Positions 28,468 through 52,597 are shown, counted from the stretch's first letter. The stretch: DNA of 64,000 nucleotides from an uncultured Hyphomonas sp. (GCA_964643405.1 CAZXQD010000005.1:297-64296), one strand, 5' to 3'. Notes: generated from the sequence alone by a model not told the origin. A program made the numbers and translations.

Positions 28468-31400
28468 CTAATAGCTGGAAGCGTCCAGAGCCTGCTGACC
28501 GCCCTTGGGCTCGGCAAGCTCCTTAGGTGTCAGTAACAGATACATCGCCGGCGTGACAATCCGCGCAAGGATGGTTGAGCTGATCAGGCCCCCGATGATC
28601 ACGACCGCAAGTGGCGAGTAAAGCGGAGACTGCTCCCAGACCAGAGGGATCATACCGCCAATGGCCGTCGCGCTCGTCAACAGCACAGGCAAAAAGCGGA
28701 TCTCGCCTGCCTGGACCACCGCTTCGCGCAAAGGTACGCCCTGCCGCCTGAGCCGGTTTGCGAAATCTACAAGAAGGATGGAGTTCTTGATCTCGATACC
28801 GATCAGCGCGATGAAACCAATCATGGCGATGAACGAAAGCGGATACTGGGCGATGTAGAGCGCAACGAGTCCGCCCATCACACCGAATGGAATGACGAAG
28901 GCCACAACCGCCATTTGTGCAAAGCTGCCAAATTCTAGCAGCAGCACAGCGAGTACACCGAAAAGGGCAACCAGCACGGCCGCGCCGAGACCTGAAAAAC
29001 TCTCACTGGCAGCTTCAGCCTGGCCGCCGAACGTGATGCGGTAACCCGGCGGCAGATTGATCGCGCGTATCTTCGAGGCAACGTCATTGGTCACAACCGA
29101 CGCAAGATAATCCGGCAACACATAGGACAAAACTGTCACCACACGTTCTTGCTGCACCCTGTTGACGACCGTCGGGCCCGAGGCAAAGCCGACGGTTGCG
29201 ATCTCCGAAAGCGGCACCCCTCCGCCCTGCCCGTTCCAGAGGTACATGCGATTCAGTGCGTCTGCATCGGGCGGCGAGCCTGCATCCATCCGCACACGTA
29301 TGGGATAGGCCTCGCCTGTCGGATCGCGCACCTGCGCCACCGTGGCGCCGCCAACCGCGATGCGAAGGGTCTGGTCTATAGCACCAGGCGGAATCCCCAG
29401 AAGCGCAGCTTTTTCGGTATCCACATCGAGTTCAAGATCGATCTGGCGAACAGCCGCCGGATTCGACACATCGCGCGTACCCGGCGTATTGCGCAGGATC
29501 AGCTCCACGTCGCCAGCGATCTGGCTCAGCGTCTCGTTATCCTTGCCCCAGATGCGCACGGCAATCGGCGCTTCCACGGGCGGGCCATTCTCGAAACGCC
29601 GGAAGGTCAGTTTGGCAGCAGGATATTTTGCGAGCTCAGCACGGATTGCGGCCACGTCTGCAGGGCTTTCGTCCGGGATCCAGTGCTCGAAAGCGCCATA
29701 TATCTGCCCATAGTCCGGCACCCCGATCGTCTCGAACACGTTGTAGTAAACCTGCGGATTGCTCGAGCCACTGTTTGCGAACCGGAAAGCGATGTCGTCG
29801 CGCTTGGCGAGGACACTCTCGACATACCGCACGGCCTTGTCCGTTTCGTCGATGGAGACGCCTTGAGGCAGCTCCACGTCAATCATGAAGTACGGGCTGT
29901 CATTCTCTGGAAAGAGAGAGAATCCGAGCCGCGGCACAAGCGCGAACGAAGACATTGCCAAGGCCAGCGACAGGATGACAGTCGACACCGGAAAGCGGAG
30001 CGCAACCCGCAGGATAGGACGGTACACCGCATGGATGGCGCCCATCACGCCGTCCAGAAACACGTTGGACTTGCCATGCCCATGGCGCGAAAGGAGACGA
30101 CCAGCGAGAAACGGAATGATGGTCAGGGATACGACCAGAGACGCAATGATCGTTGTCAGCACCGCAATCGGCAGAGAGCGGGTAAAATCGCCCGCGCCTT
30201 CCGGCAGTGCAATCAGCGGCAGGAAAGCGAAAATCAGGGTAGCCGTACACCCGATCACAGCGACGTTGATTTCCGACACACCCGCGATCGCTGCCTCGCG
30301 CCTTGGCAATCCGTCGCGCAGATGGCGCGCAATGTTTTCAGTAACGACGATGGAGTCGTCCACCAGGAGGCCGAGCGCGATTACGAAGCCGGAGATCGAC
30401 AACTGGTTCATCGTGAAACCCAGTTCGCCGATCCAGAACACTCCGATGGCCAAAGACAGGGGGATGGCCATCATCACCACGATGGCCGCGCGGAGTCCGA
30501 GCGGTAGCAGCGTGAGCAAAACCAGCAATACGGCAATCAGGAAGTCGCGCCCCAGATTGGACAGGCGATGCGCCACCGTTTTGGATTGATCGAAGCCCAG
30601 CTCAAGCCGAATGCCTTCCGGCAAGCTGCTCCGATAGGCTTCAATCTGCTGATAGAGATTGTTCCGGACGACGAATACATCGACGCCGAGCTTGCCTTTC
30701 GCACTGACAAGCACGGCGCGCTCGCCATTGTATCGCGTAAAGTGGCGCGGCTCATCATTGGCCCATTCGACGTCCGCCACATCGCCGACGGTCAGCGTGC
30801 TGCCGCCCGCCGAGCGAAGCACTGTCTTTCGAATCTCGTCCAGACTATCGAACGGGCCGGTTGCCGTCACATTGAAACGCCGTCCGCCAGACTGAACCGC
30901 GCCAATCGGAACATCCGCACCTTCGCGCTGAAGCGCGTCTGCGACAGCCAATGGGGATAATTGAAATGTCGATAGTTTGTCGAGGTCTAGCGAAACGCGG
31001 ACTTCCGATTCAGGGGCACCCCAAATCTGCGCCTGTTGCACGCCGCTCGCGCGCTCCAGCATGTCGCGCAGGTCACGCGCGGCGGCTTCGAGCTGCCGCG
31101 CCGGCGCTGTCTCGCTGACAAGGGCCAAAACCACCACGTTTGCGTTGGCCGTATTCGCCTTGAATGTACGAATCTCAACGACGCCCGTTGGAAAGTCCGG
31201 CCGCGCGACGTTCAGCTCACGGATAAACTCGTCGTACTTGCGCTCCGGATCAGATCCGTACGTGAATTCGACAGTGATACTGCCGACGCCCGAAGTTGCA
31301 CTGGAGCGAACCTCTTTCACGTCCTCGATCCGGTTCACCGCCTGCTCCAGCGGCACGACGACAAGCTTCTCGATCTGCTCAGCGTCTGCGCCGGGCAACA

Positions 31401-31551
31401 CGATGGTCGCACCGGCAATCGGGAAGCGGACGGTCGGATCTTCCGATTTCGGAATGCTGATCATCGCATTGGCGCCAAGGGCGACAAGCATGGCGAACAG
31501 CACCAGCGAAAATTGCCAGCGGTCGACAAAAAAGCGGACGATATGTTCCAT
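28468..31551 (-). CDS. RND efflux permease (AcrB/AcrD/AcrF family)
   Basis: 1027 aa; GLLVDDSIVVTENI, IKNSILLVDF, RFLPVLLT. Confidence 0.94.
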   Translation of the reverse strand: MEHIVRFFVDRWQFSLVLFAMLVALGANAMISIPKSEDPTVRFPIAGATIVLPGADAEQIEKLVVVPLEQAVNRIEDVKEVRSSATSGVGSITVEFTYGSDPERKYDEFIRELNVARPDFPTGVVEIRTFKANTANANVVVLALVSETAPARQLEAAARDLRDMLERASGVQQAQIWGAPESEVRVSLDLDKLSTFQLSPLAVADALQREGADVPIGAVQSGGRRFNVTATGPFDSLDEIRKTVLRSAGGSTLTVGDVADVEWANDEPRHFTRYNGERAVLVSAKGKLGVDVFVVRNNLYQQIEAYRSSLPEGIRLELGFDQSKTVAHRLSNLGRDFLIAVLLVLLTLLPLGLRAAIVVMMAIPLSLAIGVFWIGELGFTMNQLSISGFVIALGLLVDDSIVVTENIARHLRDGLPRREAAIAGVSEINVAVIGCTATLIFAFLPLIALPEGAGDFTRSLPIAVLTTIIASLVVSLTIIPFLAGRLLSRHGHGKSNVFLDGVMGAIHAVYRPILRVALRFPVSTVILSLALAMSSFALVPRLGFSLFPENDSPYFMIDVELPQGVSIDETDKAVRYVESVLAKRDDIAFRFANSGSSNPQVYYNVFETIGVPDYGQIYGAFEHWIPDESPADVAAIRAELAKYPAAKLTFRRFENGPPVEAPIAVRIWGKDNETLSQIAGDVELILRNTPGTRDVSNPAAVRQIDLELDVDTEKAALLGIPPGAIDQTLRIAVGGATVAQVRDPTGEAYPIRVRMDAGSPPDADALNRMYLWNGQGGGVPLSEIATVGFASGPTVVNRVQQERVVTVLSYVLPDYLASVVTNDVASKIRAINLPPGYRITFGGQAEAASESFSGLGAAVLVALFGVLAVLLLEFGSFAQMAVVAFVIPFGVMGGLVALYIAQYPLSFIAMIGFIALIGIEIKNSILLVDFANRLRRQGVPLREAVVQAGEIRFLPVLLTSATAIGGMIPLVWEQSPLYSPLAVVIIGGLISSTILARIVTPAMYLLLTPKELAEPKGGQQALDASSY

Positions 31552-31556
31552 GAAGG

Positions 31557-32663
31557 TCAGCGCCGGTCTGTCACGGTCACGGCTTCGCCATCCCGGACAT
31601 AGGCGGCCCCTTCGGCAATGACACGCTCTCCGGCCGTCAGCCCCGACAGGATCAGCACTTCGCCGCGTACTATGCCGGATGTCGATACTGCGCGGCGGTG
31701 CGCCACGTTTTGTTCATCGACCACGTAGACATAGCCGCGGTCGGCGCGCGCATCGATCAGAGCGAGCGTCGGAATGCGAACGACCGCAGATTTAGCTTCT
31801 GCTTCGTCCGTCGAGTTGATCCGTGCACTTCCGATCAGACCGCTGCGCAACAGGGCCGGATCACCCGCGCTGATATCCACATCGAAATTGCCTGTGGCAT
31901 CATTGCTCTTGGCGCCAATCCGGACGATCGCGCCGTTGCGCGCTGCACCGGCAAGGCCTGCAATGGAAATCTCGGCCGTGTCGCCGACCTTCAACCGTGC
32001 GGCATCTTCGGCCGCAACGGGGACGCGCAGGACGAGGCCGGATGTCGTGTCGCCGACCTGAACGACGGGCGCGCCGGGCGCAAGTGTCTGTCCGGGTTCA
32101 GCAAACCGGCGCAGCACCACACCGTCGACCGGTGAAACCATCACGCCGAGATTTCGGTTGAAAGAGACCGCGGTCAATGCCGCACGCGCCCGGTCCCGGA
32201 CCAGAGCCGCGTCATCAAGCCTTGCCTTGGCCAGATGGCCCTTTTCCACAAGGTCGCGTGTCCGCTCATACTGGAGATCTGCATTGGCGACCGCAGCTTC
32301 GGCATCGGCGACGCTCGCGGCCAGCTCCGTCAGGTCAAGACGTGCCAGGCGCTGATTGGCCTTTACCGGGTCGCCCTCGTCCACGTTGAGCTCTGTCAGG
32401 ATACCACCCGTCTTGAACGACAGTGTCGTCTCCTGGGAATAAACGATTGTCCCGGTCGCTGAGACGAGCGAGTCCGCCTCGGCAGGCATCACCTCAGCAA
32501 CCACGACCACAGGTGGCGCCGCCTTCAGCGCAGCGGCAGCATGGGCCTTTTCCGGTGTCCCGGCCCCGCAACCTGAAAGCAACAGGGCCAAGCCTGCGGC
32601 GAAGGAAACCGTGATCGAGCGACCCGTGACCTTGGTTACTTGCATGGCTTCCCGCATGTGCAT
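31557..32663 (-). CDS. RND periplasmic adaptor (MFP) lipoprotein
   Basis: LLSGC lipobox, VDEGDPVK, SPVDGVV, GLTAGERVI; start uncertain. Confidence 0.9.
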   Translation of the reverse strand: MHMREAMQVTKVTGRSITVSFAAGLALLLSGCGAGTPEKAHAAAALKAAPPVVVVAEVMPAEADSLVSATGTIVYSQETTLSFKTGGILTELNVDEGDPVKANQRLARLDLTELAASVADAEAAVANADLQYERTRDLVEKGHLAKARLDDAALVRDRARAALTAVSFNRNLGVMVSPVDGVVLRRFAEPGQTLAPGAPVVQVGDTTSGLVLRVPVAAEDAARLKVGDTAEISIAGLAGAARNGAIVRIGAKSNDATGNFDVDISAGDPALLRSGLIGSARINSTDEAEAKSAVVRIPTLALIDARADRGYVYVVDEQNVAHRRAVSTSGIVRGEVLILSGLTAGERVIAEGAAYVRDGEAVTVTDRR

Positions 32664-32812: not shown

Positions 32813-33937
32813 CTAGTGAAAGCGGCTCTTTAGCCGGAGCAACGGAGCCTCAAGGAACCTGTAGCTCGCCAAGGTCACCGTGAGGCTGACGAGAAAGGCG
32901 CAGACCAACAGGACAAGGACCTCGAGCTTCGTATCCACCCCCAGTTGAGCCGTCAGGGGTGAGTGAAGCAGCATGATGTTTACGATGGGGTGCCACACAT
33001 AGAGCCCATAGCTGTATTTCCCGAACCACCGCATGACCGGAACTTCCATCACGTTGGCCAGCGGCCGGAACGTGAGCGACAGAACAAGGACGCTCGCGTA
33101 GAAGATCGTGAGACAGGATATCCCCAAGGTGAGGACCAGAGGATCATCTGTTGAGAAGTCCCGCCGGACGAGAACGATCAGCAGGAAGGATGCAAGCCCC
33201 GCAGATCCGAGCCGCCAGGCCCAGGGCATCAGCGGGTCGATCCCTTTGGGACCGCGCACCATGAGGGCAATCAGCGCGCCCATTGCCAGCCCGTCCATCC
33301 GTGCAGGCGTCAGCACGTAAACCGCAAGCGCCGGCGCATCGTTTAAAACCATCAGTGTTCTGACGAGCGGCGACACAAGTATCATGGCCCCCGCGACAAA
33401 CATCAAAGTCCGGCGAGAGAAAGCCAGAACGATCAGCGGCCAGACCAGATAGAACTGCTCCTCGATGGCAAGCGACCAGAAGTGATCAAGGATGCTACCG
33501 CCGCCTTCAATTGCCATCTGGAAGTTACCGACATAGAAAATAATCCAGGCCGGGTTCGCGCCGCCCAAGAGGCCAAACCCCGTGACGGCTGCGAGGAAGA
33601 AAACGACAAACGCTGCGAAATAGTACAGCGGAAAGATCCTCAGTGTTCGGCGCGCATAGAAGTTCCGGAAGTAGTTCTGCTTGCCTTTGGAATCGTAAAG
33701 CAGGCCGGTGATCAGGAAGCCGGAGAGCACAAAAAACAGATCCACACCGGACCAACCGAGCCCGGTCAGCTTCAGCGCAGAGGCCCCGAGCCCCAGCGCC
33801 ATCGCGCTACCACCATAGTGATAGATCAGTACCAGGATCACACCAAGTCCGCGGATTCCATCCAGCGCAGGGATATGCCCTGACCAGACCGACGCAGAAT
33901 GCGCGCCGATAGCGGGGGGGTCAGCGAGACTGTTCAT
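32813..33937 (-). CDS. Acyltransferase-3 (OafA-like) membrane O-acyltransferase
   Basis: LDGIRG, GVDLFFVLSGFLI, FYARRTLRIFPLY, HFWSLAIEEQFY, YSYGLYVWH. Confidence 0.93.
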   Translation of the reverse strand: MNSLADPPAIGAHSASVWSGHIPALDGIRGLGVILVLIYHYGGSAMALGLGASALKLTGLGWSGVDLFFVLSGFLITGLLYDSKGKQNYFRNFYARRTLRIFPLYYFAAFVVFFLAAVTGFGLLGGANPAWIIFYVGNFQMAIEGGGSILDHFWSLAIEEQFYLVWPLIVLAFSRRTLMFVAGAMILVSPLVRTLMVLNDAPALAVYVLTPARMDGLAMGALIALMVRGPKGIDPLMPWAWRLGSAGLASFLLIVLVRRDFSTDDPLVLTLGISCLTIFYASVLVLSLTFRPLANVMEVPVMRWFGKYSYGLYVWHPIVNIMLLHSPLTAQLGVDTKLEVLVLLVCAFLVSLTVTLASYRFLEAPLLRLKSRFH

Positions 33938-35462
33938 AGGACCACCGGTAAAGTGCGCCGTTCGACGAAACAAAAGCCGTGCCGGTCGCCACGTCCAACT
34001 CGATCGAGCGGAGCCACGGACCGAGATAGACTTTGCCGACTGTCTTCAAGGTCTCCATGTCGATGATGGCGATCTGACCGGTTACGAAGCTACCGGCAAA
34101 AAGCAGGTTCCGTTCGCTATCAACTGCCAGTGTGCGCACGCCAAACGGTCCTCGGATAATACCTTTCGGCTCGAGTGTGTCGGCGTCCATCCTCAGTATC
34201 TCCGACTTCACCGGAGATGTGACGAGCAGTTCGTTGTCATCGGGAAGCAGGAGCATGCGATCAAGGCGCGACGGAGCAGCCTTTTGCGCGATGATTTCGC
34301 GCGCTTGCATATCGTAGATCATGATCTGCGGATTGCGGCGGAAGAAACTCAGATACAACCAGGGCTTATCCGGGTGTTTCAGGATGTTGCCACCGTCCAG
34401 CGGCCGGCTGTCAAGGATTTCGCCGGTCGCAAAATCCACGAGCAGGAACGCCACACCATCATCCATATCCGCTTCCGAAACCATCGCGATGGTACCGGAG
34501 ATCGGATCATGGGCGACCCATGGGTCGCCTGATGCCAGCCGTGATGCGTCAAGGCTGCGAGCAAGCTGGAGCGTTGCGGCATCAATGATGAGAAGCCGCT
34601 TCTGCTCACCGTCGTGGACGATCAGAGCGTTCTTTTCCGGGTTCCAGAAAATGCCTTGCGAGCCGCCGCTGTCGACTTCGGAAACGCTTGGCGCGCGGCC
34701 AGGATCATTAATGTCGAACGCGATGACGCTGTCCAGTCCGTGGCCTGTCGCGTAGAGGCGCCGGGTCGCCGGATCAAGTGAAAGACCATTGATGTTCCCG
34801 CGCATGATCACGCTCGCTGTCGCAGGCATGCGGATGGATTGCTCGATGGAAACGAGGCTGCCACCTTTTGCAAGGACCGCCACGCTTGCACTGACGACGC
34901 AGACCGCGAGAGCCCAGCCTATGGAGACCAGCCAACGGCCTGCGGCTTCCCGGAAGCCCGCAAGTTCCGCCAGCCAGCTGACATGGCGGCGGATAGCCAT
35001 GACTTCCGTCACGCCGACGCCGGCCGTCATAACGTTGTTGTCCAGATAGCGCGTGAACACCGCGGCCGGAAGAAAGTTAGCCGCTGCAAGGATGAGCGGG
35101 ATGAGCGCATGGCGAAGCGGCGTGGCAGTGGACCAGAAAAGCCAAAGAGTCAGAACAAGCGTCGCGCCTGTCAGAAACAGGTAACCCTGCAGCGGGCGAA
35201 GTCGGGCAGACACAATTGCGATGCCTGCGAGCACGCCGGCAAACGCCAGGAAAAGAAGGATCCGGGAAATTGGAAGACTAAGGAGGTCGATAATCCGGAG
35301 GGTGATGGCGTCGCCGTCGAAGACCGGCAACTCCGATATAGGCCCTCTGAAAAGGTAGAGGATGAGGAGGATGACCGGAACGCGCAGGACACCCCATGCC
35401 AGGAACGCTTTCGCGCCTGGAGAGGTGCGCCCAAGTCGCGCGCTTTGCTCAGTCTCGGCCAT
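33921..35462 (-). CDS. Membrane protein with C-terminal YncE-like beta-propeller
   Basis: Hydrophobic N-terminal third, then repeated beta-blade patterns (GLSLDPATRRLYAT, LAVDSERNLLFAG); GGAG RBS. Confidence 0.7.
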   Translation of the reverse strand: MAETEQSARLGRTSPGAKAFLAWGVLRVPVILLILYLFRGPISELPVFDGDAITLRIIDLLSLPISRILLFLAFAGVLAGIAIVSARLRPLQGYLFLTGATLVLTLWLFWSTATPLRHALIPLILAAANFLPAAVFTRYLDNNVMTAGVGVTEVMAIRRHVSWLAELAGFREAAGRWLVSIGWALAVCVVSASVAVLAKGGSLVSIEQSIRMPATASVIMRGNINGLSLDPATRRLYATGHGLDSVIAFDINDPGRAPSVSEVDSGGSQGIFWNPEKNALIVHDGEQKRLLIIDAATLQLARSLDASRLASGDPWVAHDPISGTIAMVSEADMDDGVAFLLVDFATGEILDSRPLDGGNILKHPDKPWLYLSFFRRNPQIMIYDMQAREIIAQKAAPSRLDRMLLLPDDNELLVTSPVKSEILRMDADTLEPKGIIRGPFGVRTLAVDSERNLLFAGSFVTGQIAIIDMETLKTVGKVYLGPWLRSIELDVATGTAFVSSNGALYRWSYEQSR

Positions 35463-35648
35463 TTACGGCACTCCAAAGTCCAGTTCGCTAGTTCGCGCCC
35501 CTCAATCAGGCCTTCGCAACAGCTCCATCAGTTCCCGGTCAGTTCATGGCGTTGGGCACTGCCCACGTTGACCCCATGTGGACTGCAAGCAAGATCGGGA
35601 CCAGAAACTGACAGGCCTTTCAAACACTTGCCTCGTCGGGAACCAGTC

Positions 35649-36947
35649 TCAAAGGGTAGCTGCCCCATTCCTTTGCCCACGGACGATTGCCAGGAGGCCC
35701 AAAAGCATCACCGCGCCGAAAAGCCAGTGGGAGACGACGAAATTGGAAAGGCCGCCGAACCGGCCAAGCGTCATCGAATGGCTGACGAAGGCAGTGCCTG
35801 CCAACAGGGCGTAGCTAACGATCAGCGGCCAACGCAGCGCAGACAGCGCCTCACCGGGCCGCGACTTTACCCAGACCATCACGAGCGCTGGCAGAAGCCA
35901 GACATGGTAGTGCGCCCAGGAGAGCGATGTCACCGTCATGGCGAACAGCACGGCAACCATCACTTCGATCTCGATATCGCCAGCGCTGGCCTTGATGAAG
36001 CGCCCAGACTTCCATGCTGCAAACAGAACCGCGGCCAAGAGCGCCGCTGTCAGCACGAGCGATATGGCACGGCTGGCTGGCGACAGGCTATGGACGGAGT
36101 AGTCATGTCCAAACGGCCCTCCAACCTCAAATCGCGCCAGCATGCCCGGCAGGGTCTGATTGACATAGGCAATCACGGGCTGGCCCGCATAAGGCGCGAT
36201 CGATGTCTCATACCAGAGAACGTGCATGTCCCAGCCGAAGACAAGCAGGGAAAGCGCAACTGAACCCGCCACCACGACGGCCCCGCCCATGACAACCGTC
36301 CAGCGGCCACGGAGGAAGTACAGCACACCGATCAACAGGAGCGCGGGCTTGATGACCGCCGCCAGTCCAAAAAGTGCTCCTGCAGCAAATCCTTTGCCGG
36401 AGCGCACCATGGCGAGACCGCCAAGAATCAGCGCCAGGACAAAATGAGACGTATTCCCCACCTTGAATGAATACAAAAGCGGACCAAAGGCACAGAGCGC
36501 CATCACAAGGAGTGCCGCTTCGCGCCGATCAAGCCCGAACATTTCGACGAGAAGACGCCAGATCAACCACACAACGCCGACGCCAATCAGTGTGATGATG
36601 ATCGCTGCGGGCATGTCCGGCAGCAAGCCAAATGGCGCAAAGAGATAGGCCACAATCGGCAGATTCACAAAAACCAAAGTCTCGCTGCTGTAGGAAGCAG
36701 CGAGTGCCTGCGGACCTTCAAGGACGAGCTTGCCGGCGAGCCAGTAGCATTCACGGAAATCCCAGAAGATGAATTCCAAACCGGGCTGGGTGTTCACAAA
36801 GATGATCGCAGCGGTCAGCGTGCCCCAGATCAAAGTGAACGGCCAGAGCAGGTTCGAATAGCGCGGAGATACTGCAAACCGGTGAACCAGCAGGAAGCCG
36901 ATCAGCGCAAACACGAGGTGCTGCCCGTTGACTGTCAGCGAATGCAA
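35649..36947 (-). CDS. Glycosyltransferase family 87 (DUF2029, GT-C)
   Basis: WDFRECY, FVNLPIVAYLFAPF, AAVIKP, VNQTL, LSWAHYH; multi-TM; TTG start after GGGAGG. Confidence 0.8.
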   Translation of the reverse strand: MHSLTVNGQHLVFALIGFLLVHRFAVSPRYSNLLWPFTLIWGTLTAAIIFVNTQPGLEFIFWDFRECYWLAGKLVLEGPQALAASYSSETLVFVNLPIVAYLFAPFGLLPDMPAAIIITLIGVGVVWLIWRLLVEMFGLDRREAALLVMALCAFGPLLYSFKVGNTSHFVLALILGGLAMVRSGKGFAAGALFGLAAVIKPALLLIGVLYFLRGRWTVVMGGAVVVAGSVALSLLVFGWDMHVLWYETSIAPYAGQPVIAYVNQTLPGMLARFEVGGPFGHDYSVHSLSPASRAISLVLTAALLAAVLFAAWKSGRFIKASAGDIEIEVMVAVLFAMTVTSLSWAHYHVWLLPALVMVWVKSRPGEALSALRWPLIVSYALLAGTAFVSHSMTLGRFGGLSNFVVSHWLFGAVMLLGLLAIVRGQRNGAATL

Positions 36948-37092
36948 AGGACCCTCCCTGATCGCTAAGCTGGCAAACGCACAACCGCGGTTAACCCCGA
37001 GTTCTGCCGCTCAACTGGCCATGACTTAGCAAGATCAGGACCAAATCACCAAGGAGCGAAGGGGCTGATACCACAATCGCCTATTCGACAGA

Positions 37093-37518
37093 TTAAGGAC
37101 TGCTCTTGTCATCGCGCTTCGCGGCGTAAACCCAGAAGGTAAAGAAGATGAAGTTCACCACTGGAAGCGTCACCACGACAGCCAGCAATCGCAGCGGCTC
37201 AGGAACGTTCAACGCCTCTCCCAGCCGCGCCACGAAGATGTCCGAAATGATGACGCTCAGCGCAATGCTGACAAGGAATTTTACAAGCTGACCGCCGTCC
37301 GCCCACTTGCGCTGGAAGGTGAAGACACTGTGCATGACGTACTGGAACACTACGGCGGTCGTCATCGCGATTCCCGATGCAAATGCCGGCGACATGGTGA
37401 GCACGTTCCGCAAGAGGAAATAAAGGCCCACATAGACAGCTGTTACAGCGAGGCCGGTGATCGTGTACCGGACCGCAAGCTGAAACGTCGCTTTAGAAAT
37501 GTTGAATGGCAGGGTCAT
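37093..37518 (-). CDS. GtrA-family lipid-linked sugar flippase
   Basis: 141 aa, four TMs; RYTITG, HSVFTF, FWVY. Confidence 0.85.
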   Translation of the reverse strand: MTLPFNISKATFQLAVRYTITGLAVTAVYVGLYFLLRNVLTMSPAFASGIAMTTAVVFQYVMHSVFTFQRKWADGGQLVKFLVSIALSVIISDIFVARLGEALNVPEPLRLLAVVVTLPVVNFIFFTFWVYAAKRDDKSSP

Positions 37519-37537
37519 CTCGTCCTCGGCATTTCGG

Positions 37538-39013
37538 TCAGAGCGGAACGCCGAACCAGGCCAGAAAGAAGCATACGCCAGCCAGGGCCGCGTAGGCGAG
37601 ACATACCCTGTCTTTCACGACGAAAACCACGGGGTCATCATCAAGATCGCCGCGCTGACACGTCACCCAGATCCGACTGGAGATCAGGAAGATCAGCGGC
37701 GGAAGCGCCCACAGCCAATCGCCAGTCTTGATGAAACTCTGGTTGTAGGCGTCTTCGATGATGTACAGCACCATGATCACCACTGCCGCGATCGAGCTTG
37801 AAATGCCGGCAGCGAGCACCAGTGGCAAATCGGAAGCTCGGTATCCGCGGCCGCTGACCCAATTCCCGCCTCGCTCAATCACCCGCGCAATCTCGGTATG
37901 GCGCTTGGCAAAGGCCAGCGAGGTGAAAAAGAACATGGCGAACACGAACAGCCAGGGGGATGGAACCGCAGCTACGGCCACCATGCCCACCACAAGCCGC
38001 AACGTGAAAAGGCCCGCCAGTGTTACGGCATCGTGGATGACCTTTCGCTTGAGCCATAGAGAATAGGTCATCGTGACAACGACGTAGACGAACACCCATT
38101 GCAGCACGGAAAGTCCCGCCAGCAGCGCGAGCGTAAGCCCGATGGTCAGACAAACCGATGCACCCACAATGCCTGCGGGCAGCGACAGCGCGCCGCTCGC
38201 CAGCGGGCGACGCCTCTTGGACCAGTGCTGGCGGTCATCCTGCAGGTCCCAGATGTCGTTGAAAACATAGGTCGCAGAAGCTGTCAGTGACAGGGCAAAA
38301 AAAGCCAGCGCCAGCGGCAGGAATGTTGACGGATCAATGATCCGCCCAGAGAGGATCGCCGGCACCACCACGAGCACGTTCTTAGCCCATTGATGCGGCC
38401 GAAGGCTCTTGACCAGCGCCTTGAAGCCGCCTGGTCGCTTGAAGACGTGCGTGACGTTGGCACTTTTGCGGGCGCGGCTGAGGGTCGCCCTGGAGGCGCC
38501 CACAACGATGGCGTCGCGAGCATGCTTCCAGACTTCAAGATCAGCCCGGCTGTCACCTGCATAGTCAAAGCCCTGCGGAAAACGCTTTATCAGGGCTTCA
38601 GCCTTTGCCTTGCCTTTCAGGTTCAATTTTCCCTCGGTGGCGATCACTTCGGAAATGAAGTCGAACCTTTTGCGGAAAGCTTGCGCTGTGTTGGCATGCG
38701 CCGCCGTTGCCAGAACGACTGGACGCCCCTTGGCCGCTTCTGATTCAGCAAAAGCTACCACTTCGTCGTTCACCGGCAGATACTCAGGATCAAGAGTAAC
38801 CGCCGCAGCCAGTTGTTCTTTCAGTACAACTCGGCCGGCAAACAGCCATCCGACAAGACGGAAGATGGCCAGCGGCGTGCGCCGAAGCAGCGCAACGCCC
38901 TGCTCAATCAGGGAATCCGTTCGGATCAAGGTACCGTCGAGATCGAGTACCAGCGGAACGACATCCGCTTTGTCGTTGGCTTCCGGCGCGATGGATGAGG
39001 AATTCTCAAACAT
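37538..39013 (-). CDS. HAD-UbiA fusion, polyprenyl-phosphate phosphoribosyltransferase-like
   Basis: HAD motif LDLDGTL and YAGDS; UbiA domain RPHQWAKN, YVFNDIWDLQDDRQHWSKRRRPLASG, DDDPVVF. Confidence 0.88.
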   Translation of the reverse strand: MFENSSSIAPEANDKADVVPLVLDLDGTLIRTDSLIEQGVALLRRTPLAIFRLVGWLFAGRVVLKEQLAAAVTLDPEYLPVNDEVVAFAESEAAKGRPVVLATAAHANTAQAFRKRFDFISEVIATEGKLNLKGKAKAEALIKRFPQGFDYAGDSRADLEVWKHARDAIVVGASRATLSRARKSANVTHVFKRPGGFKALVKSLRPHQWAKNVLVVVPAILSGRIIDPSTFLPLALAFFALSLTASATYVFNDIWDLQDDRQHWSKRRRPLASGALSLPAGIVGASVCLTIGLTLALLAGLSVLQWVFVYVVVTMTYSLWLKRKVIHDAVTLAGLFTLRLVVGMVAVAAVPSPWLFVFAMFFFTSLAFAKRHTEIARVIERGGNWVSGRGYRASDLPLVLAAGISSSIAAVVIMVLYIIEDAYNQSFIKTGDWLWALPPLIFLISSRIWVTCQRGDLDDDPVVFVVKDRVCLAYAALAGVCFFLAWFGVPL

Positions 39014-39349
39014 GGGTCTTTATAGTCGTCCTCGAGCCGGTGGCAGTTGAAAGCTCGCACACCCGGAAACTGTAACCAACAGCGCCATGGGCATGTTCGC
39101 TTTTCGCCTCCCCTGAGCAATCCATATGCCAGTAGATGGCGGGACTTGTTGGTAAACTCCGCTGCCATTGAGATAGCCGAATTGGAGCCAGGATTTACAA
39201 TCTGTTCCGCGGGATATGCCCCAGGTTTGCAACGAAACGATTAAATACCGGGCGGAAATGGTTAAGCGCCGATACGGGCCCGGAAAGGCTGGTGCACGCA
39301 CTGCTGCCAGCAGCAAGGTTAATGAACGGCGCTGCGCCGGCCGGCGCGT

Positions 39350-40336
39350 TCAGGCCTCAACTGTTGCAGATGCCTCGGCGATGAGCCTTGCCGCAACATC
39401 ACAGCGATCCGGCGTTGAAAGCCAACTTTCCGCTACAAGGTTTTGACGCAGACGTTCGGGCCGCGTCGTTGAGAACAGCACCATTCCCTCTGGGTTCTGG
39501 GCGAGCGCCTGTGCCAGAAACGCTTGTGCGACCTGCGAATTGTCCCGGGCGTCGATCCCGAGTTCGCCGGACCAACGCGCTCTGAGCGCATCGTCCGTCT
39601 TCAGACGGTTAACCACGCCCTTGTACGGCTCACCCAGGCAGGAATGGGTCACGACAAGTGCTGGTATCGCGGCGCCAGACGGAGGGAAAAAGTGCCGGAT
39701 CCTGCTGTCGAATTGCGCGACATCCCCATAGGCAACGCCGCTTGAAGCAATGCTCAGCATCTCCGGCGCCGTTGGTGCAACGCCGACCATCCGAGCTTTG
39801 CCGTCCCGCACCACGGCGCTGAGGAAAGTCTGCACATCGTCGCTGCGGACATTATCGAGCGTACATTCGTGCAGCAGCAACAGGTCAACATAGTCGGTTC
39901 GCAGCAATCGGAGGCTGGTCTCCAGGCTCTCCTGCATCCGCTTGCGGTCAAACACCCCGAATTCGGGATGCTGGACCAGGTCCGGCACCACGGCTTTCAG
40001 CGGCGCAAACTTGCGTAAGGCGGAAGCAGCCTTGCCTTTCGCGCGGGTCGCAAGGTCGCGCTTGACCGGGAGGATCCCGACCTTGGTTGCAAGGATCACT
40101 TCGCTCCGCAAACCGCGAAACGCTTCACCAAGCAGGCGTTCTGATTCACCTTCCGCATAGAGACGCGCTGTATCAAAATAGGCGACCCCCTGTTCATGGG
40201 CTTCCCTGAGCAGGCGAACACAAGTGGAGGCGTCACCTACCTGGTGTAAAAGGCCCGTACCGAAGCCCAGCGGCCCGGTGCGTTTACCAAACAAGCGGGC
40301 AGCGAAAGTGGAGGTGGTCGTCTCACTCATAGTCAT
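39350..40336 (-). CDS. Aldo/keto reductase
   Basis: LGFGT, FDTARLY, SERLLG, ATKVG, SLRLLRTDYVDLLLLH. Confidence 0.9.
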   Translation of the reverse strand: MTMSETTTSTFAARLFGKRTGPLGFGTGLLHQVGDASTCVRLLREAHEQGVAYFDTARLYAEGESERLLGEAFRGLRSEVILATKVGILPVKRDLATRAKGKAASALRKFAPLKAVVPDLVQHPEFGVFDRKRMQESLETSLRLLRTDYVDLLLLHECTLDNVRSDDVQTFLSAVVRDGKARMVGVAPTAPEMLSIASSGVAYGDVAQFDSRIRHFFPPSGAAIPALVVTHSCLGEPYKGVVNRLKTDDALRARWSGELGIDARDNSQVAQAFLAQALAQNPEGMVLFSTTRPERLRQNLVAESWLSTPDRCDVAARLIAEASATVEA

Positions 40337-40464
40337 TCAAAGACGGGGAGATGATTGCCCTGTCAATCACGTTCCCTTAGTCACACGTTTACGATTGACG
40401 ACAACCTTCCATTGCCGCCCTGCAAGTGCGCGCAAATCTTTAACGCCACGGGACAAGGCCAGCC

Positions 40465-42006
40465 ATGCTTGGGCACCATGACGCGATCATAGTCGGAGCG
40501 GGCGCGTCCGGCAGTCTTGCGGCAGCACTCCTTTGCGAAAGCGGACTATCTGTACTGTTGCTGGATGCCGGCCGGCCGATTTCGTTCTGGGAAAAGCCGC
40601 TCAGCAAAACGCTCGCAAAAACTATCGGCGCGATCTCTGACCCCCAGCTGGCGCGCATCCTTCATCCGCGCCTGATCAATGCCGGTACGCGCATCCTCCG
40701 AATTGCCGGACGCGTCCGGCAACCCGTGCAGACAGAATGCTTTGCGTGGGTACAGAAGCCCGACAGTTTTGTGGACGACAAGGACCACCCTTACGAAACA
40801 CCTGACGGCCAGCCCTTCACGTGGATCCGCTCACATGGCGTCGGCGGCCGCATGGTCGTCCCAGGGCATGGCCGCCAATACTATCGGTTGAGCCAGCATG
40901 ATCTCGGTCCGCGTGACGATGACCCGAGTCCCTGGCCATTCGGGATCGAAGAACTCGAGCCGTGGTACGAGAAAGTTGAAACCCGTCTCGGCCTGTTTGG
41001 CCGCCGCGAGGGAAACGCCTTCATTCCGGACAGCGTCCTCACCTACCCTATCAGCCCGGATATTTCTGAAGAGCAGCTGCTCGAAACGTTCGCTCAGCGC
41101 TGGCCGGCAGCAAACATCATGCTTAGCCGGTATGCGGCTCCGGTCGACTTCACAGCGTTCGCCCAGGCAACAGGCCGGCTCACCCTGCGCACAAGCGCAA
41201 TTGCCCAGCGCGTTCTCAGCGGGACAGATGGCAAAGCTGCAGGCGTCGAGTGGCTGGACCCTTCCGATGGCAAGATGCACTCGGCCAGCGCACCGCTGAT
41301 CTTTCTTTGCGCGTCATCGCTCGAGTCCACGCGCATCCTGCTGAATTCGCGTAATTCCGATGGTCCGCTCTCGGAACAACTTCCGGCCCTTGGTCTGCAC
41401 CTGAGTGACCATGTGATGGTAAAGGCCGAAGGCCTCAGCCCGCCACTTCCGATCACGCCGCCGGCTCCACCCGGCCGCTGTCTCTACCTGCCCCGCTTCG
41501 ACCTTCGCCGCGGCGGAAATGCGGCGCAGCGCGGTTACGGCATACAACTATATGCCACAGCAAACCCGGCGGGCTCCTGGACGACCGCCGTGGCTTTCGG
41601 GGAGACCTCAGGCGCCATGAATGGCCGCGTGACCCTGTCAAAAAACCGGAAAGACCGATGGGGACAGCCCGTCCTTTCGATTGATACCCGCCTGGGAGAA
41701 CCCGAGCGCACACTCGCGCAGTCCATGTCGGCGGCACTTAATGAGTTGTTCGAAGGCATTGGGGCAAAGGTACTGGTGCCGCCCGCAGGCCCGGCAAATC
41801 CCGGAACGTCCGTACACGAATGCGGCGGCGCCCGCATCGGAACCGATGCTCGCACATCGGTTCTCACACCTTACAATGAATGCTGGGCTATGCCGGGGCT
41901 CTACGTCACTGATGGCGCCGCTCTACCCTCCCAAGGGGCGCAGAACCCTACGCTGACAATTATGGCGCTGACGGCGCGCGCCTGTAACAAGGCCGTCAGC
42001 AGCTAG
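40465..42006 (+). CDS. GMC-family FAD oxidoreductase
   Basis: IVGAGASG, ESTRILLNS, HECGGARIG, LYVTDGA, QNPTLTIMAL; no obvious signal peptide. Confidence 0.9.
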   Translation: MLGHHDAIIVGAGASGSLAAALLCESGLSVLLLDAGRPISFWEKPLSKTLAKTIGAISDPQLARILHPRLINAGTRILRIAGRVRQPVQTECFAWVQKPDSFVDDKDHPYETPDGQPFTWIRSHGVGGRMVVPGHGRQYYRLSQHDLGPRDDDPSPWPFGIEELEPWYEKVETRLGLFGRREGNAFIPDSVLTYPISPDISEEQLLETFAQRWPAANIMLSRYAAPVDFTAFAQATGRLTLRTSAIAQRVLSGTDGKAAGVEWLDPSDGKMHSASAPLIFLCASSLESTRILLNSRNSDGPLSEQLPALGLHLSDHVMVKAEGLSPPLPITPPAPPGRCLYLPRFDLRRGGNAAQRGYGIQLYATANPAGSWTTAVAFGETSGAMNGRVTLSKNRKDRWGQPVLSIDTRLGEPERTLAQSMSAALNELFEGIGAKVLVPPAGPANPGTSVHECGGARIGTDARTSVLTPYNECWAMPGLYVTDGAALPSQGAQNPTLTIMALTARACNKAVSS

Positions 42007-42017
42007 GCAACTACCGT

Positions 42018-43754
42018 TCAGTCCGCACACGGGCAAATCTGGCCGCCGGTGCGATCCGGGCCATAGGCAGCGACGCTTTCCGGCGCTTCGCAAGCAATAT
42101 TCTCGGCCGAAATGTACTGCGTCTCGATCCCGGCCTTCTGCATCAGGAATATACGCGACTGTACCATCTCGGGTACCATACAATAGCGCTCGCCGGTCTG
42201 CGCCAACCGCGCAACCTGCGCATCGACTTCAGCGCTTCGGCCGGCTGTCAACCAGGTCGACGCGCCGCCTGCAAGTGCGGCATTTCCCAACATCACGGCA
42301 ATGATCGACACGCCGAGCGCATTGAGGCCGCGCTGTTTCATTGTCAGCGTCGCCGCAGCCACGCAAACCGGCACCAGCCAGAACTGCGGCACATAGCGAG
42401 CCCACCAGTTCTGCGGCATCAGCAATACCGAAACGAGCAGCGCCGCAGCAACGAAAAGCAACGCGTGTGTAACCGGTCCACAGTCCTTGCGGTACAGTGC
42501 AAGGAGGCCGGCGGCGATCAGCGAGAGAACGACCGCGCCCGAGAACAAGGGACCGAATCCAGCGAGGCGCACATCGACACCGCCGGCAGCGCGCACTTCC
42601 TCAAGCGACAGCGAAAAAGGCAGTTTGATATGAGCGACGGTGTCGTAGCCAGCATGCGTCTGAGAGAACAGAGAGAAGAAGAACCGCTCGACGGCAGACT
42701 TATCGAGCAGGACATCCGGCGTATTGTCGAGCGCCGGTCCAACGCCCGACATGATATCAATCGCATCCCTTCCCATGATCGGATGGAACACGTGCCCATG
42801 ATCAAGGAAATTCTGCATGTAAGGCGACCAGCCCAGCACGAAGATCGCGGCTGTGGCCGAAGTGAGGAGAATGGCAGCTGTGGTTGTTGCCTTCGGCCAC
42901 CGCCCGACAATGAATGCGCCGAGGCAGGCAAACGCACACAGGAAAACGAAGGTCGGTATCCCGGAGAACTTCAGGTTCAGCGCCAGCGCCATAGCCGCAA
43001 TGCCAGCGACCAAGGCTGCGCGCGAGCCTTCGCGGACCCACGCGGCCAACGAGAGAACAAAGATCAGGATACAGAGATTGAGCAAGCCATCATTCATGCT
43101 TGTCCAGACCTGCGACAACACGACAGGATTGAGAACGGCCGCCGCTGTCAAAACCAGCGAAAACAGCCGGGAGAACCCTGTCCGGTACAATGCAGCGCCT
43201 GTCATCGCTGTGGCACCAAACAGCACAAGGAGATTGGTCAGCTTCACCATTCCCAGCGGCAGGCCAGCCGATAGAAGGGTCGACGAGAAAACCCACACAG
43301 CGCGCGGATAGTGCACTGCCCACGGCGTGATTTCGTCTCCGATCACAGGTGCCGCAGCAGGCTTGTAGATCGGGTTCCAACCCTCAGCGAGCGCGTAAAT
43401 TGCCTGGAAGTGGTACTGCTGGCCGTCCATCGAGGTATCGTGGAAAATCCCTGCCCCGAACGCCGCGAGCAGACCCAGCACGGCCGCGATCAGTGGCGCC
43501 TGCGGAGACGTCCCGGGAAACAGCCGGGCGGCAGAGCCTAATGCCCCGGCCGCGCTGACCACCAACACACTCCAGCTAAAACCCGGCGAGACGATCCCGC
43601 CCGCCATGAACCAGCAGGTCGTAAGCGCGAAAACAAACACGGGGAACAGGATCAGCATGGTGCCAACGGCCCAGAGTATCGATGGCTCTTGCGCCTGCGC
43701 CCGCGCCAGCCCGACGTCCTGCCGGAAGCCATTTTGGAACAGTTGGTTAATCAT
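42018..43754 (-). CDS. Polytopic membrane protein, putative GT-C glycosyltransferase
   Basis: Many TMs; loop DTSMDGQQYHFQAIYALAEGWNP, NLKFSG, WWARYVPQ. Confidence 0.6.
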   Translation of the reverse strand: MINQLFQNGFRQDVGLARAQAQEPSILWAVGTMLILFPVFVFALTTCWFMAGGIVSPGFSWSVLVVSAAGALGSAARLFPGTSPQAPLIAAVLGLLAAFGAGIFHDTSMDGQQYHFQAIYALAEGWNPIYKPAAAPVIGDEITPWAVHYPRAVWVFSSTLLSAGLPLGMVKLTNLLVLFGATAMTGAALYRTGFSRLFSLVLTAAAVLNPVVLSQVWTSMNDGLLNLCILIFVLSLAAWVREGSRAALVAGIAAMALALNLKFSGIPTFVFLCAFACLGAFIVGRWPKATTTAAILLTSATAAIFVLGWSPYMQNFLDHGHVFHPIMGRDAIDIMSGVGPALDNTPDVLLDKSAVERFFFSLFSQTHAGYDTVAHIKLPFSLSLEEVRAAGGVDVRLAGFGPLFSGAVVLSLIAAGLLALYRKDCGPVTHALLFVAAALLVSVLLMPQNWWARYVPQFWLVPVCVAAATLTMKQRGLNALGVSIIAVMLGNAALAGGASTWLTAGRSAEVDAQVARLAQTGERYCMVPEMVQSRIFLMQKAGIETQYISAENIACEAPESVAAYGPDRTGGQICPCAD

Positions 43755-46260: not shown

Positions 46261-46362
46261 TTGTAAAGCGGCGCTAACCGCCCAGTCCAGCAGTCGGGCA
46301 ATACCGTGGACGGCGGCCCGCGTCCATCTTGCGCCGTGCAACAGGCTGAAAAGGAGAAAGCC

Positions 46363-47085
46363 ATGGACAAGGTCATTCTGATAACCGGAGCCTCCAGCGG
46401 CATCGGCGAAGGCATCGCGCGCGAACTCGCGGCGGGGGGCGCGACGGTTCTGATGGGCGCCCGTCGCACCGATCGGTTGGACAGGATCGCCGGCGAGATC
46501 CGTGCCGCGGGCGGAGTCGCCGCCACCCGCGCGCTCGATGTCACCGACATCGGGTCGATGCAGACCTTTGCGCAGACGGCGCTCGACCTCTGGGGCCGGA
46601 TCGACGTGCTGGTGAACAACGCGGGCATCATGCCGCTGTCGCCCATGTCCGCCCTCAAGTTCGACGAGTGGGCGCGGATGGTCGACGTTAACATCAAGGG
46701 CGTGCTCTGGGGCATTGGCGCGGTCCTGCCGGTGATGGAACGCCAGGGCGAAGGCCAGATCATCAACATCGGTTCGATCGGCGCGCTGCAGGCCGTGCCC
46801 ACCGCAGCGGTCTATTGTGGCACCAAATTCGCCGTGCGCGCCATTTCGGACGGGCTGCGCCAGGAAAGCAATGCCATCCGTGTCACCTGCGTGAACCCCG
46901 GCGTGGTGGAAAGCGAGCTCGCCGCGACGATCACCCACGCGGAAACGCAGGCCCTGATGGACAACTACCGCGCCATCGCGCTGAAACCTGGCGACATCGC
47001 CCGCGCCGTGCGCCAGCTGATTGAGGCCCCGGCAAACGTTGACACGACCGAGATCACGATCCGTCCCACCGCATCTGCCAACTGA
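46363..47085 (+). CDS. SDR-family oxidoreductase
   Basis: TGASSGIG, NNAG, YCGTK; AAGGAG RBS. Confidence 0.93.
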   Translation: MDKVILITGASSGIGEGIARELAAGGATVLMGARRTDRLDRIAGEIRAAGGVAATRALDVTDIGSMQTFAQTALDLWGRIDVLVNNAGIMPLSPMSALKFDEWARMVDVNIKGVLWGIGAVLPVMERQGEGQIINIGSIGALQAVPTAAVYCGTKFAVRAISDGLRQESNAIRVTCVNPGVVESELAATITHAETQALMDNYRAIALKPGDIARAVRQLIEAPANVDTTEITIRPTASAN

Positions 47086-47600: not shown

Positions 47601-48008
47601 ATGACAACGCCGCTTATACGTCTCAATCCCGCAGGACTGTTCGATTCGACACAGAACCACCATTCTCAGGGTACGCTGGTGCCCGACGGTCGGCTGGCGT
47701 TCTTTTCCGGCCAGATCGCGTGGCAGCAGGACGTGGAGACAGCGCCTGACTCGCTGGCCGAACAGACCGCAATTGTCTGCCGGAACCTGCGTACCTGCCT
47801 CGACAGCGTCGGCGCAGTGCCAGCGGATATCGTCAGCCTGCGGGCCTATATCGTCGACTGGTCGCCCGGAATGGCCGCCGAGGTCTTTCCGCCGCTCATG
47901 GCGTTTCTCGGTGATGCCATGCCCAGCGTGACCGGCATCGGTGTCAGCTCCCTGTTCGGGCCCGATCTGAAGATTGAGATCGAAATGGTCGTGCGTGCAC
48001 CCGGCTGA
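47601..48008 (+). CDS. RidA/YjgF-family protein
   Basis: FFSGQIA, IGVSSL, KIEIE; AAGGA RBS. Confidence 0.85.
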   Translation: MTTPLIRLNPAGLFDSTQNHHSQGTLVPDGRLAFFSGQIAWQQDVETAPDSLAEQTAIVCRNLRTCLDSVGAVPADIVSLRAYIVDWSPGMAAEVFPPLMAFLGDAMPSVTGIGVSSLFGPDLKIEIEMVVRAPG

Positions 48009-48289
48009 ACGCAGCGGAACGACCAAGGGCACGGCGTACTTCGAGACCTTGGCTGTTGATTGCTTTTGAGAATGCTGCCTGTCTAATGCCAACCCGTCTC
48101 CGCTTTTCGCGGGTCAGCAGGTGCTAGACAACGAGAAGTTCGCGCCATTAGCGAAGGGCGGCGTTTCGTAGCGATTTAAAGCCGGCTCTCCTCTCGATGT
48201 TCTCTGGTGATTGAAATGGTTGTGTACAGACGAATGCATTGAAGCGACTTTCTGCAGACTTCGCATTAGCCGAAAGCGCGACATTGCCC

Positions 48290-48657: not shown

Positions 48658-48752
48658 ATCGCGGCATTGTCCGAGAACCGGCCTGAATTTGCTCCGAGCA
48701 TAACTGCCGCGCTGGAAGAGGAATACAAATCAGCAATCAAGTAGCGTCTGGC

Positions 48753-48858
48753 TTGGGCCAGATCGGCTCTGATGATGGATTTCGGCGTCCGGCAGGGTCA
48801 CCTCAATCCTGTCAGTGGGTTGCATCATGCGCACCAGGCCGGACATCGCCGAAAACAG
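48753..48858 (+). repeat. Modular direct repeat, copy 1
   Basis: Ungapped 73/106 identity to 56608-56713; last 70 bp 49/70 identical to 49790-49859. Confidence 0.8.
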
Positions 48859-48875
48859 TCACATCGGCCTTCGAT

Positions 48876-49751: not shown

Positions 49752-49789
49752 CGTGTAAGTATGTCGAGGTGCCGGCGGGAGCGCAATGA

Positions 49790-49859: not shown

Positions 49860-49912
49860 ACGTTCGACGGCACTTTAGTGAATGCGTTTGCTCCCGCCAC
49901 TGATCGAAGACA

Positions 49913-52509: not shown

Positions 52510-52597
52510 GGCAGCCAGCGCCGCTGATTGAGCAGCATTGCTGTTTGGTCTCGGCCACAGCAGGGTTGTACTCTGACTCAAGCGTGGAAACACGCCT

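Follow-up and report, generated by a model that had tools for sequence, protein, structure and literature searches.

A predicted ribofuranose decoration locus in an uncultured Hyphomonas sp. and the GMC flavoprotein–aldo/keto reductase pair embedded in it

Introduction

Does a GMC flavoprotein working with an aldo/keto reductase (AKR) take the place of DprE1 and DprE2 in a lipid-linked pentose pathway? The question is raised by a 64,000-nucleotide stretch of DNA from an uncultured Hyphomonas sp. (GCA_964643405.1, CAZXQD010000005.1:297-64296; hereafter the window). At 32813-43754, the GMC and AKR genes sit amid glycosylation genes, and the cluster itself holds neither a DprE1-type flavoprotein nor a short-chain dehydrogenase/reductase (SDR). 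The initial annotation of this DNA named eight genes, all of which are present and belong to the families given, and proposed that the pair replaces DprE1 and DprE2. We conclude that it is probably not a stand-in for these enzymes. The reading we favour, at somewhat better than even confidence, is that the core of the locus is a ribofuranose decoration system and that GMC and AKR form a separate mobile cassette, whose products would oxidize and then re-reduce a sugar on a membrane-bound glycan intermediate other than undecaprenyl-phospho-ribose (Und-P-ribose).

Results and Discussion

The core belongs to a known pentofuranose system

Kelly et al. (2024) described a fusion of an HAD-family phosphatase (PRP) with a polyprenyl-phosphoribose synthase (PPPRS) that makes polyprenyl-phospho-ribofuranose, with a small flippase (predicted) and a GT-C glycosyltransferase completing the system (PMC11127046; here and below, statements are limited to part of that report). 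The window carries such a fusion, HAD-UbiA (37538-39013, minus strand), which scores 607 bits on NF006088 (PRK08238; cutoff 351) and matches NF008977/8 with E about 1e-38, under the cutoffs of those families. PF12710 spans residues 22-160 of the HAD part, with the loop-I motif DLDGT at 24 (D24). The UbiA part has NDxxDxxxD at 252 (N252/D253/D256/D260) and KRxxE at 370 (R371/E374), and the fusion keeps all residues that were mutated in Citrobacter youngae ORF15 (PMC11127046). The adjacent small flippase is a putative one of the GtrA family (37093-37518, minus strand; PF04138, E 1.1e-16), encoded 19 bp downstream of the synthase, and an adjacent GT-C glycosyltransferase is provided by the GT87 gene (35649-36947, minus strand; PF09594, E 1.5e-26, over cutoff). 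With synthase motifs, flippase and GT-C all present, the initial assignment as a polyprenyl-phospho-pentose glycosylation locus is borne out, and the core is one more member of the system described in 2024.

By analogy with ORF15, the fusion is predicted to make Und-P-ribofuranose from phosphoribosyl pyrophosphate (PRPP); GtrA would flip this product, and a GT-C enzyme would add the unmodified ribofuranose to a surface glycan. Both ribose as the default product and the PRP-PPPRS chemistry rest on the Citrobacter work (PMC11127046). There, ORF15 by itself yields farnesyl-phospho-ribofuranose, and serotype O1, without an epimerase, bears ribofuranose; a single SDR, ORF13, leads to xylofuranose, and DprE1/DprE2 homologues accompany arabinofuranose (PMC11127046). 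Since plain ribofuranose requires no epimerase (PMC11127046), the lack of DprE1/DprE2 at the synthase calls for no substitute. Of 27 Hyphomonadaceae PPPRS loci without an in-locus DprE1, two have an ORF13-like SDR (L258, L268), two have GMC+AKR (L017, L120) and 23 have neither within the stretch fetched.

The locus shares with ORF15/ORF14/ORF12 of C. youngae O1/O2 the HAD(PRP)-PPPRS motifs, a small membrane flippase, a GT-C enzyme and, in the Citrobacter case, ribofuranose made without DprE1/DprE2 (PMC11127046). It differs in having a GtrA-type flippase and two GT-C candidates (GT87 and an unclassified protein, not shown to be GT136), an O-acyltransferase, a beta-propeller protein and the GMC+AKR insertion, and in having no ORF13-like SDR (PMC11127046). 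With the mycobacterial decaprenyl-phospho-arabinose pathway (Rv3806c, Rv3807c, DprE1, DprE2, Rv3789, Aft/Emb) it shares a PRPP-derived polyprenyl-phospho-ribose, a small flippase and GT-C transfer, and the oxidize-then-reduce logic of that pathway is conceivable for GMC+AKR too.

DprE1, DprE2 and ORF13-like SDR genes were not found in the genome

The window genome (G000) is 99.98% complete, and its proteins are closest to those of Hyphomonas. Searches with ten DprE1-like and eight DprE2-like proteins from synthase loci, one of which was confirmed against solved DprE1 (E 1e-64), found no DprE1 or DprE2 orthologue in it, and the DprE2-like queries gave generic SDR matches only. A DprE1 profile run over the genome reached at best 50 bits, on an aldonolactone-oxidase-like gene. 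The objection that dprE1/dprE2 elsewhere in the genome supply the step, foreseen in the initial annotation, is therefore not borne out by the search, which found neither. An ORF13-like SDR was not found in G000 either: a stand-in profile of five PPPRS-adjacent extended SDRs (ORF13 itself not in it) reached no more than 85-117 bits in this genome, whereas members left out of the profile scored 272-354.

Individual candidates were also rejected. The window gene at 3498-4925, which alone in the genome combines FAD_binding_4 with ALO, resembles aldonolactone/alditol oxidases: it matches 8ot8 with E 4e-39 and DprE1 with about 2e-5. For the SDR at 46306-47085, the NF005489 score is 80 bits (cutoff 267). 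GMC and AKR are not themselves DprE1 and DprE2 orthologues: DprE1 is an FAD_binding_4/ALO flavoprotein and DprE2 an SDR, neither found in this genome, whereas the pair has GMC and AKR folds. As a separate observation, the alditol-oxidase-like flavoprotein has an RR-containing N-terminus and is followed by an unannotated 427-aa open reading frame (3498-6198).

The pair looks like an insertion and is weakly linked to the synthase

The GMC gene (40465-42006; PF05199/PF00732) is on the plus strand, which the initial annotation did not state. It stands head-to-head with the AKR gene (39350-40336, minus strand; PF00248), with 128 bp between them, and tail-to-tail with a gene for a GT-C-like multi-pass membrane protein (42018-43754, minus strand); lying on the opposite strand, it must be transcribed separately from the UbiA genes. 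The GT-C-like gene stands immediately upstream of HAD-UbiA in three related loci (L020, L040, L257), so GMC+AKR looks like a cassette set between the two. The locus is a mosaic in another respect as well, since its GtrA is of a different subfamily from the one usual after Hyphomonas HAD-UbiA (clusters c61 versus c6; no significant match). The window HAD-UbiA itself is 72-84% identical to most Hyphomonas records.

Co-occurrence was assessed across 201 Hyphomonadaceae genomes, with the GMC clade defined by at least 40% identity and E 2e-85 or better. The GMC clade is present in 37, the synthase in 80, DprE1 in 60 and the AKR clade in 24; the synthase count is 81 matches minus G015, which has a stand-alone HAD gene only. 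That HAD/PRP-like gene (L311:9594-10217) stands on its own, its UbiA domain missing. The pair occurs in 12 of the 80 synthase genomes and 12 of the 121 without synthase (p 0.37), versus 54 of 80 and 6 of 121 for DprE1, the positive control; related genomes are not independent, and the co-occurrence p-values given here are descriptive only. True DprE1 thus co-occurs tightly with the synthase, whereas GMC+AKR does not.

When 18 GMC genomes were searched with a PPPRS family profile, the matches were all weak and of UbiA/CyoE level (E 5.6e-8 or worse; none in G015), whereas two positive controls scored about 1e-38. Completeness is 90% or more in six of the 12 pair genomes that lack the synthase; in one of the six, G025, a DprE1 fragment lies at the end of a contig and may mark an assembly gap. 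G152, a single contig that is 99% complete, has the pair, and no synthase was found in it. In G196, which keeps the pair (73% and 56% identity), the PPPRS locus is cleanly absent from its usual site, with tig on one side and the customary downstream neighbour on the other.

The synthase lies beside only 3 of 29 pair loci (stretches of up to about 9 kb on each side, several contigs being shorter). Conversely, the 80 synthase loci hold GMC+AKR in two cases, DprE1 in 15 and a distant AKR-GMC operon in one (L083). Elsewhere, pair and synthase are 61 kb to about 1 Mb apart (G083, G132, G143, G160) or on separate contigs (G093, G137, G167, G084, G148), and three genomes with close PPPRS loci (G173, G182, G071) lack the pair genome-wide. 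Pair, synthase and DprE1 occur together in G076, G084, G148 and G160. The idea that the pair is conserved beside HAD-UbiA thus largely fails, no synthase having been found in half of the 24 pair genomes; what survives of it is that 10 of 11 genomes of a Hyphomonas subclade carry PPPRS. Mutual exclusion of GMC+AKR and DprE1 does not hold, as 4 of 54 PPPRS+DprE1 genomes carry the pair. With a core of a kind that delivers ribofuranose without an epimerase, weak linkage and coexistence with DprE1, replacement of DprE1/DprE2 is not supported.

A GMC gene inside a PPPRS locus is not unique to the window. One of the loci in Fig. S12 of Kelly et al. holds a GMC-family gene labelled 'Choline dehydrogenase' (PMC11127046), which we traced to a plasmid locus of Rhizobium sp. 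CCGE531 (CP032687; L295:8971-16913). Its product has only motif-level similarity to the window GMC (E 3e-6), lacks an AKR partner and adjoins two NAD-dependent oxidoreductases/epimerases. GMC flavoproteins have entered PPPRS loci more than once.

The GMC protein is a predicted sugar oxidase with a basic insert

The window GMC has the FAD motif GAGASG (GxGxxG) at 11 and a His/Asn pair (H451/N494) aligned with that of PsG3Ox; across 34 rows, each of these residues is either invariant or conserved in 90% or more. Its best PDB sequence match is 7qf8 (E 1e-13), and its fold matches are sugar oxidases and dehydrogenases at about 18-21% identity (FDH, GDH, 7qfd, 7dve). These results place it in the sugar-oxidizing pyranose-oxidase/glycoside-3-oxidase fold group. 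At 47 bits on TIGR02462 (cutoff 545) and ~20% identity to solved members, C3 regioselectivity is not readable from the sequence. Kinship does not fix the carbon attacked either, because PsG3Ox oxidizes glucose at C2 and C-glycosides at C3 (PMC10646112, of which part is used here).

PsG3Ox (7QF8; PMC10646112), 7DVE and the large subunits of fructose and glucose dehydrogenases share the fold, the His/Asn pair and, following the first FAD-binding strands, an insertion. Unlike theirs, the window insert is strongly basic, and no small subunit or cytochrome partner was seen. This amphipathic segment, at about 37-90, is helical in the model, and its median net charge in the clade is +9 (5 to 12; 33/34 rows parsed), versus 0 in distant GMCs (-6 to +5; 49/51 parsed).

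The AKR has an intact tetrad (D55/Y60/K85/H156) that is invariant in 25/25 sequences, and its model is a TIM barrel (pLDDT 92.9) with consistent fold matches. It also bears a basic amphipathic loop helix, at 95-108 and helical in the model, with a charge of +4 to +8 in 25/25 sequences; the loops of three other AKRs encoded in G000 carry 0 to +3. Hydrophobic segments are absent from both GMC and AKR, and no signal peptide is evident in either. To judge from sequences and models, the two basic helical inserts suggest binding at the inner membrane surface and a lipid-linked substrate.

The second-step partner is an AKR or a DegT aminotransferase

In all 24 genomes with the AKR clade, a GMC gene lies beside it. 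The arrangement is head-to-head, tandem or GMC-GT2-AKR (L142), and since every AKR adjoins a GMC, the two are taken to be a functional unit. Five GMC loci without AKR have instead a DegT aminotransferase of one clade (53-84% mutual identity), mostly tail-to-tail and among housekeeping genes (L140:8048-10804, L153:5666-8432, L156:9611-11966, L250:3557-6292, L251:995-3687). G880 holds both GMC+AKR and GMC+DegT. This interchange is as a keto-sugar intermediate predicts: reduction would give an epimer and transamination an amino sugar, to which the DegT loci may be a route.

Precedents for two-step keto logic are DepA/DepB, a dehydrogenase and AKR that invert a C3 hydroxyl, and likewise butirosin BtrE/BtrF; GnnA/GnnB and NeoQ/NeoB are analogous dehydrogenase and aminotransferase pairs. 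DepA/DepB, GnnA/GnnB and NeoQ/NeoB share reduction or transamination as the second step, and their oxidase families or substrates differ from those of GMC+AKR. We know of no such pair that acts with a GMC on a lipid-linked surface-glycan sugar.

The pair recurs in polysaccharide loci of the Hyphomonadaceae

Among the 29 pair loci, PPPRS is found in 3, GT-C in 12, Leloir glycosyltransferases (GTs) in 14, and Wzx/Wzy/Wzc in 8. Genus g11 and G152 (e.g. L132:1521-10776) have GT2, Wzx, a GT4-like gene, a sulfotransferase and an Agl23-like GT-C next to AKR-GMC, which suggests that the cluster makes a sulfated, GT-C-modified polysaccharide. GtrA and GtrB also lie near the pair in G152, and several lone GMCs have ExoK- and ExoO-like genes with Wzy/Wzc nearby. 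Skermanella, a plasmid of Mycobacterium sp. JS623 and G1178 carry related cassettes of AKR, GMC and glycosyltransferase genes, and the stretches seen there hold no synthase. Of six further annotated plasmid loci with distant GMC/AKR relatives, two have glycan genes nearby and four do not. The window genome offers other candidate substrate pathways, namely a Wzy/Wzc/Wzx locus on contig C9 and a stand-alone GtrB on contig C37.

Quick trees of 15 rows each give two histories that disagree. The window GMC is nested among unlinked copies, and a single clade of linked copies is rejected (approximately unbiased test, p-AU 0.005); linked AKR copies are basal, and a single origin is not rejected (p-AU 0.115). 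On either history, these sequences indicate that the pair has been tied to the PPPRS locus more than once or from early on. An empty GAF/DUF4129 slot in G000 was considered as proof of a cassette moving out and rejected, because G071, G173 and G170 share the empty slot, which may be ancestral.

Wider scans for the GMC clade found no member among 400 Alphaproteobacteria (with 3 candidates per genome scored), 280 Caulobacterales from other families or the 44 genomes outside Hyphomonas in a set of 50 that bear PPPRS (50 of the 80 loci were submitted). For the AKR clade, 340 Pseudomonadota yielded one genome other than G000, and viral contigs yielded none. A metagenome scan with the GMC alignment returned one true orthologue among 80 loci, the others serving as the distant-GMC control, and orthologues in Hyphomicrobium, Burkholderiales and Steroidobacteraceae are represented by protein records. 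A literature search found no paper on a GMC+AKR pair in glycan or PPPRS biosynthesis, with most subscription journals outside its coverage.

Some further copies are worth recording. In the chromid of Cupriavidus metallidurans CH34 (L296:8368-10981), an AKR of the clade (clade profile, E 5e-70) and a distant GMC stand in tandem, and no nearby glycan gene was recognized. In G132, a Condensation + AMP-binding + Acyl_transf_3 fusion adjoins the pair (L136:4045-8121), and the GMC there has one internal TAG; GMC copies of G017 are broken too.

Alternative roles for the pair

Taken as a whole, the initial interpretation stands for the pentose-glycosylation locus, for the lack of detected dprE1/dprE2 and for a sugar-oxidase GMC with an intact AKR, and falls for the replacement of DprE1/DprE2. 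Under the reading we favour, GMC would oxidize one sugar hydroxyl to a ketone and AKR would reduce the ketone to the epimer. The substrate would be a hexose or repeat unit of the Wzx/Wzy or GtrB type linked to undecaprenyl phosphate (Und-P) or diphosphate (Und-PP). We infer the keto intermediate, the epimerization, the inner-face membrane binding and this substrate class from the protein and context data above.

Several observations weigh against this reading. No glycan gene was detected at 11 of the 29 pair loci, which makes a glycan substrate less certain; some of these contigs are short, and the GT2 of L142 was missed by that test. The active-site gate of PsG3Ox (insertion-1) occupies the position of the GMC insert (PMC10646112), which by analogy may be a lid rather than a membrane anchor. 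The other contrary points bear on Und-P-ribose itself. The pair sits inside PPPRS loci at two different slots (window/G170 and L017/G880), and the AKR tree allows residence there to be ancestral for the clade. The Hyphomonas GMC subclade with PPPRS in 10 of its 11 genomes has DprE1 found in none, and among PPPRS genomes generally the pair is commoner without DprE1 (8/26 versus 4/54; naive p 0.015), 7 of these 8 being one clade. Finally, Pseudogemmobacter sonorensis has a distant AKR-GMC-GT2 operon facing a DprE1-less PPPRS locus (L083:7053-13049), divergent from its HAD-UbiA, SMR flippase and GT-C genes and with Wzx/Wzy-like genes nearby; this is the best outside parallel to oxidation and reduction on Und-P-ribose.

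These last points would be explained if the pair were an optional two-enzyme epimerase for Und-P-ribofuranose in a Hyphomonas clade, acting in trans where unlinked and giving xylofuranose (C3) or arabinofuranose (C2), the former somewhat likelier given the glycoside-3-oxidase kinship, with enzymes relaxed enough to accept other Und-P-sugars where the synthase is absent. The rejected single clade in the GMC tree would then reflect repeated recruitment to PPPRS loci. The absence of an ORF13-like SDR from G000, the GT-C genes next to 12 pair loci, the GtrA+GtrB of G152 and basic inserts that suit a lipid-phosphate substrate also favour this proposal, as does the existence of pairs that invert a C3 hydroxyl (DepA/DepB and BtrE/BtrF). 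However, the pair shows no family-wide co-occurrence with PPPRS, coexists with DprE1 in four genomes, outlasted the PPPRS locus in G196, lies far from the synthase or on another contig in nine genomes and is missing genome-wide beside three close PPPRS loci, and one origin for all linked copies remains compatible with the AKR tree. We regard an Und-P-ribofuranose epimerase as unlikely, if the most serious competitor. Equally tentative is its broader form, in which membrane-bound GMC+AKR would be a third type of lipid-linked-sugar epimerase beside DprE1/DprE2 and the ORF13 SDR, converting Und-P-ribofuranose to its xylo- or arabinofuranose counterpart here, acting on GT-C hexose donors elsewhere and giving amino sugars with DegT. 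Less probable again is a role in remodelling the head group of a membrane glycolipid, which AKR would turn into an epimer and DegT into an amino sugar; undecaprenyl carriers would have no part in it, and gene-island clustering would account for the pair's presence in glycan loci. The membrane-type inserts, the near confinement to the Hyphomonadaceae (a glycolipid-rich family) and the many copies alone among housekeeping genes (no glycan gene in 4/5 DegT and 5/11 lone GMC loci, besides the 11 AKR loci above) fit such a role; the polysaccharide genes at 18 of the 29 pair loci, in one of which a GT2 separates GMC from AKR, and a patchy spread (24/201) more like surface-antigen variation than core lipid synthesis do not. 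The least probable of these roles is a catabolic or detoxifying one, on small external glycosides or hydroxylated xenobiotics and with no part in biosynthesis. In its favour, the closest relatives with solved structures act in sugar catabolism as oxidases and dehydrogenases, L-galactose dehydrogenase and DepB are among the look-alikes of the AKR (about 20% identity), and on Rhizobium plasmids GMC relatives of 30-33% identity are part of sugar-uptake operons. Yet the annotated neighbours of the clade, not every one of which was scanned, include no sugar ABC transporter, sugar-phosphate-isomerase-type lyase or gluconate-2-dehydrogenase small subunit; moreover, DegT is a biosynthetic family and the clade recurs in glycan loci.

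The main result is thus an uncharacterised GMC clade, with AKR or DegT as its second-step partner, that recurs in polysaccharide loci; GMC and AKR both carry membrane-type inserts. If this redox module does epimerize or aminate a lipid-linked sugar, it would be a route to rare surface-glycan sugars that bypasses nucleotide sugars and a possible tool for glycoengineering. In H. neptunium, a harmless and tractable organism, the pair (near 1.227 Mb) and an unlinked synthase locus (near 2.144 Mb) are both present, which makes the question directly testable there.

Other genes of the locus and its surroundings

The GT-C-like protein (42018-43754) has about 10 hydrophobic segments and no match in Pfam or NCBIfam. 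Its Atlas look-alikes, a lead only, include members with PMT (26%) and PMT_2 (11%), and together these features point to a GT-C-like protein and a candidate ribofuranosyl transferase. It has no detectable relationship to the Agl23-like GT-C of L132. The GT87 enzyme would use as donor either Und-P-ribofuranose or an Und-P-hexose made by the stand-alone GtrB, which may supply it. This GtrB-like GT2 (L292:8098-9069, on C37 of the window genome) is 53% identical to the GtrB of the G173 PPPRS locus, where the GT87/propeller/acyltransferase block is accompanied by GtrB and GtrA.

The O-acyltransferase (Acyl_transf_3; 32813-33973, minus strand; PF01757, E 4.5e-25) likely acylates a surface glycan, judging from its family, and co-travels with the propeller and GT87 genes in L010, L015 and L016. 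The propeller protein (33921-35462, minus strand) is YncE-like and membrane-anchored, with about four N-terminal hydrophobic segments and weak, sub-cutoff NF052280/TIGR03866 matches (Atlas 0.82, a lead only).

Other Hyphomonadaceae PPPRS loci (L011-L014, L017, L040, L253, L255, L263) have an acyl-transfer module of MBOAT, an unannotated partner, an AMP-binding enzyme and a classical SDR, along with 2-3 GT-C genes; this module is absent from the window locus. Genes of the pyrroloquinoline quinone (PQQ) glucose/sorbosone-dehydrogenase type, a second kind of sugar oxidase, recur in glycan loci (L016:19072-20829, L257:13397-14539, L133:18418-19899).

Directly downstream of the cluster, at 28468-32663, lie genes for an RND pump and a membrane-fusion protein, which are also linked to it in G170, though not in the remaining close PPPRS loci of Hyphomonas. 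Periplasmic glucan genes, MdoG and GT2 (OpgG/OpgH-like), lie about 12 kb away from the cluster (16809-20716), and the region at 48000-58000, with lower GC (0.54-0.57) and CHASE2 and CHAT domain genes, is probably an acquired island.

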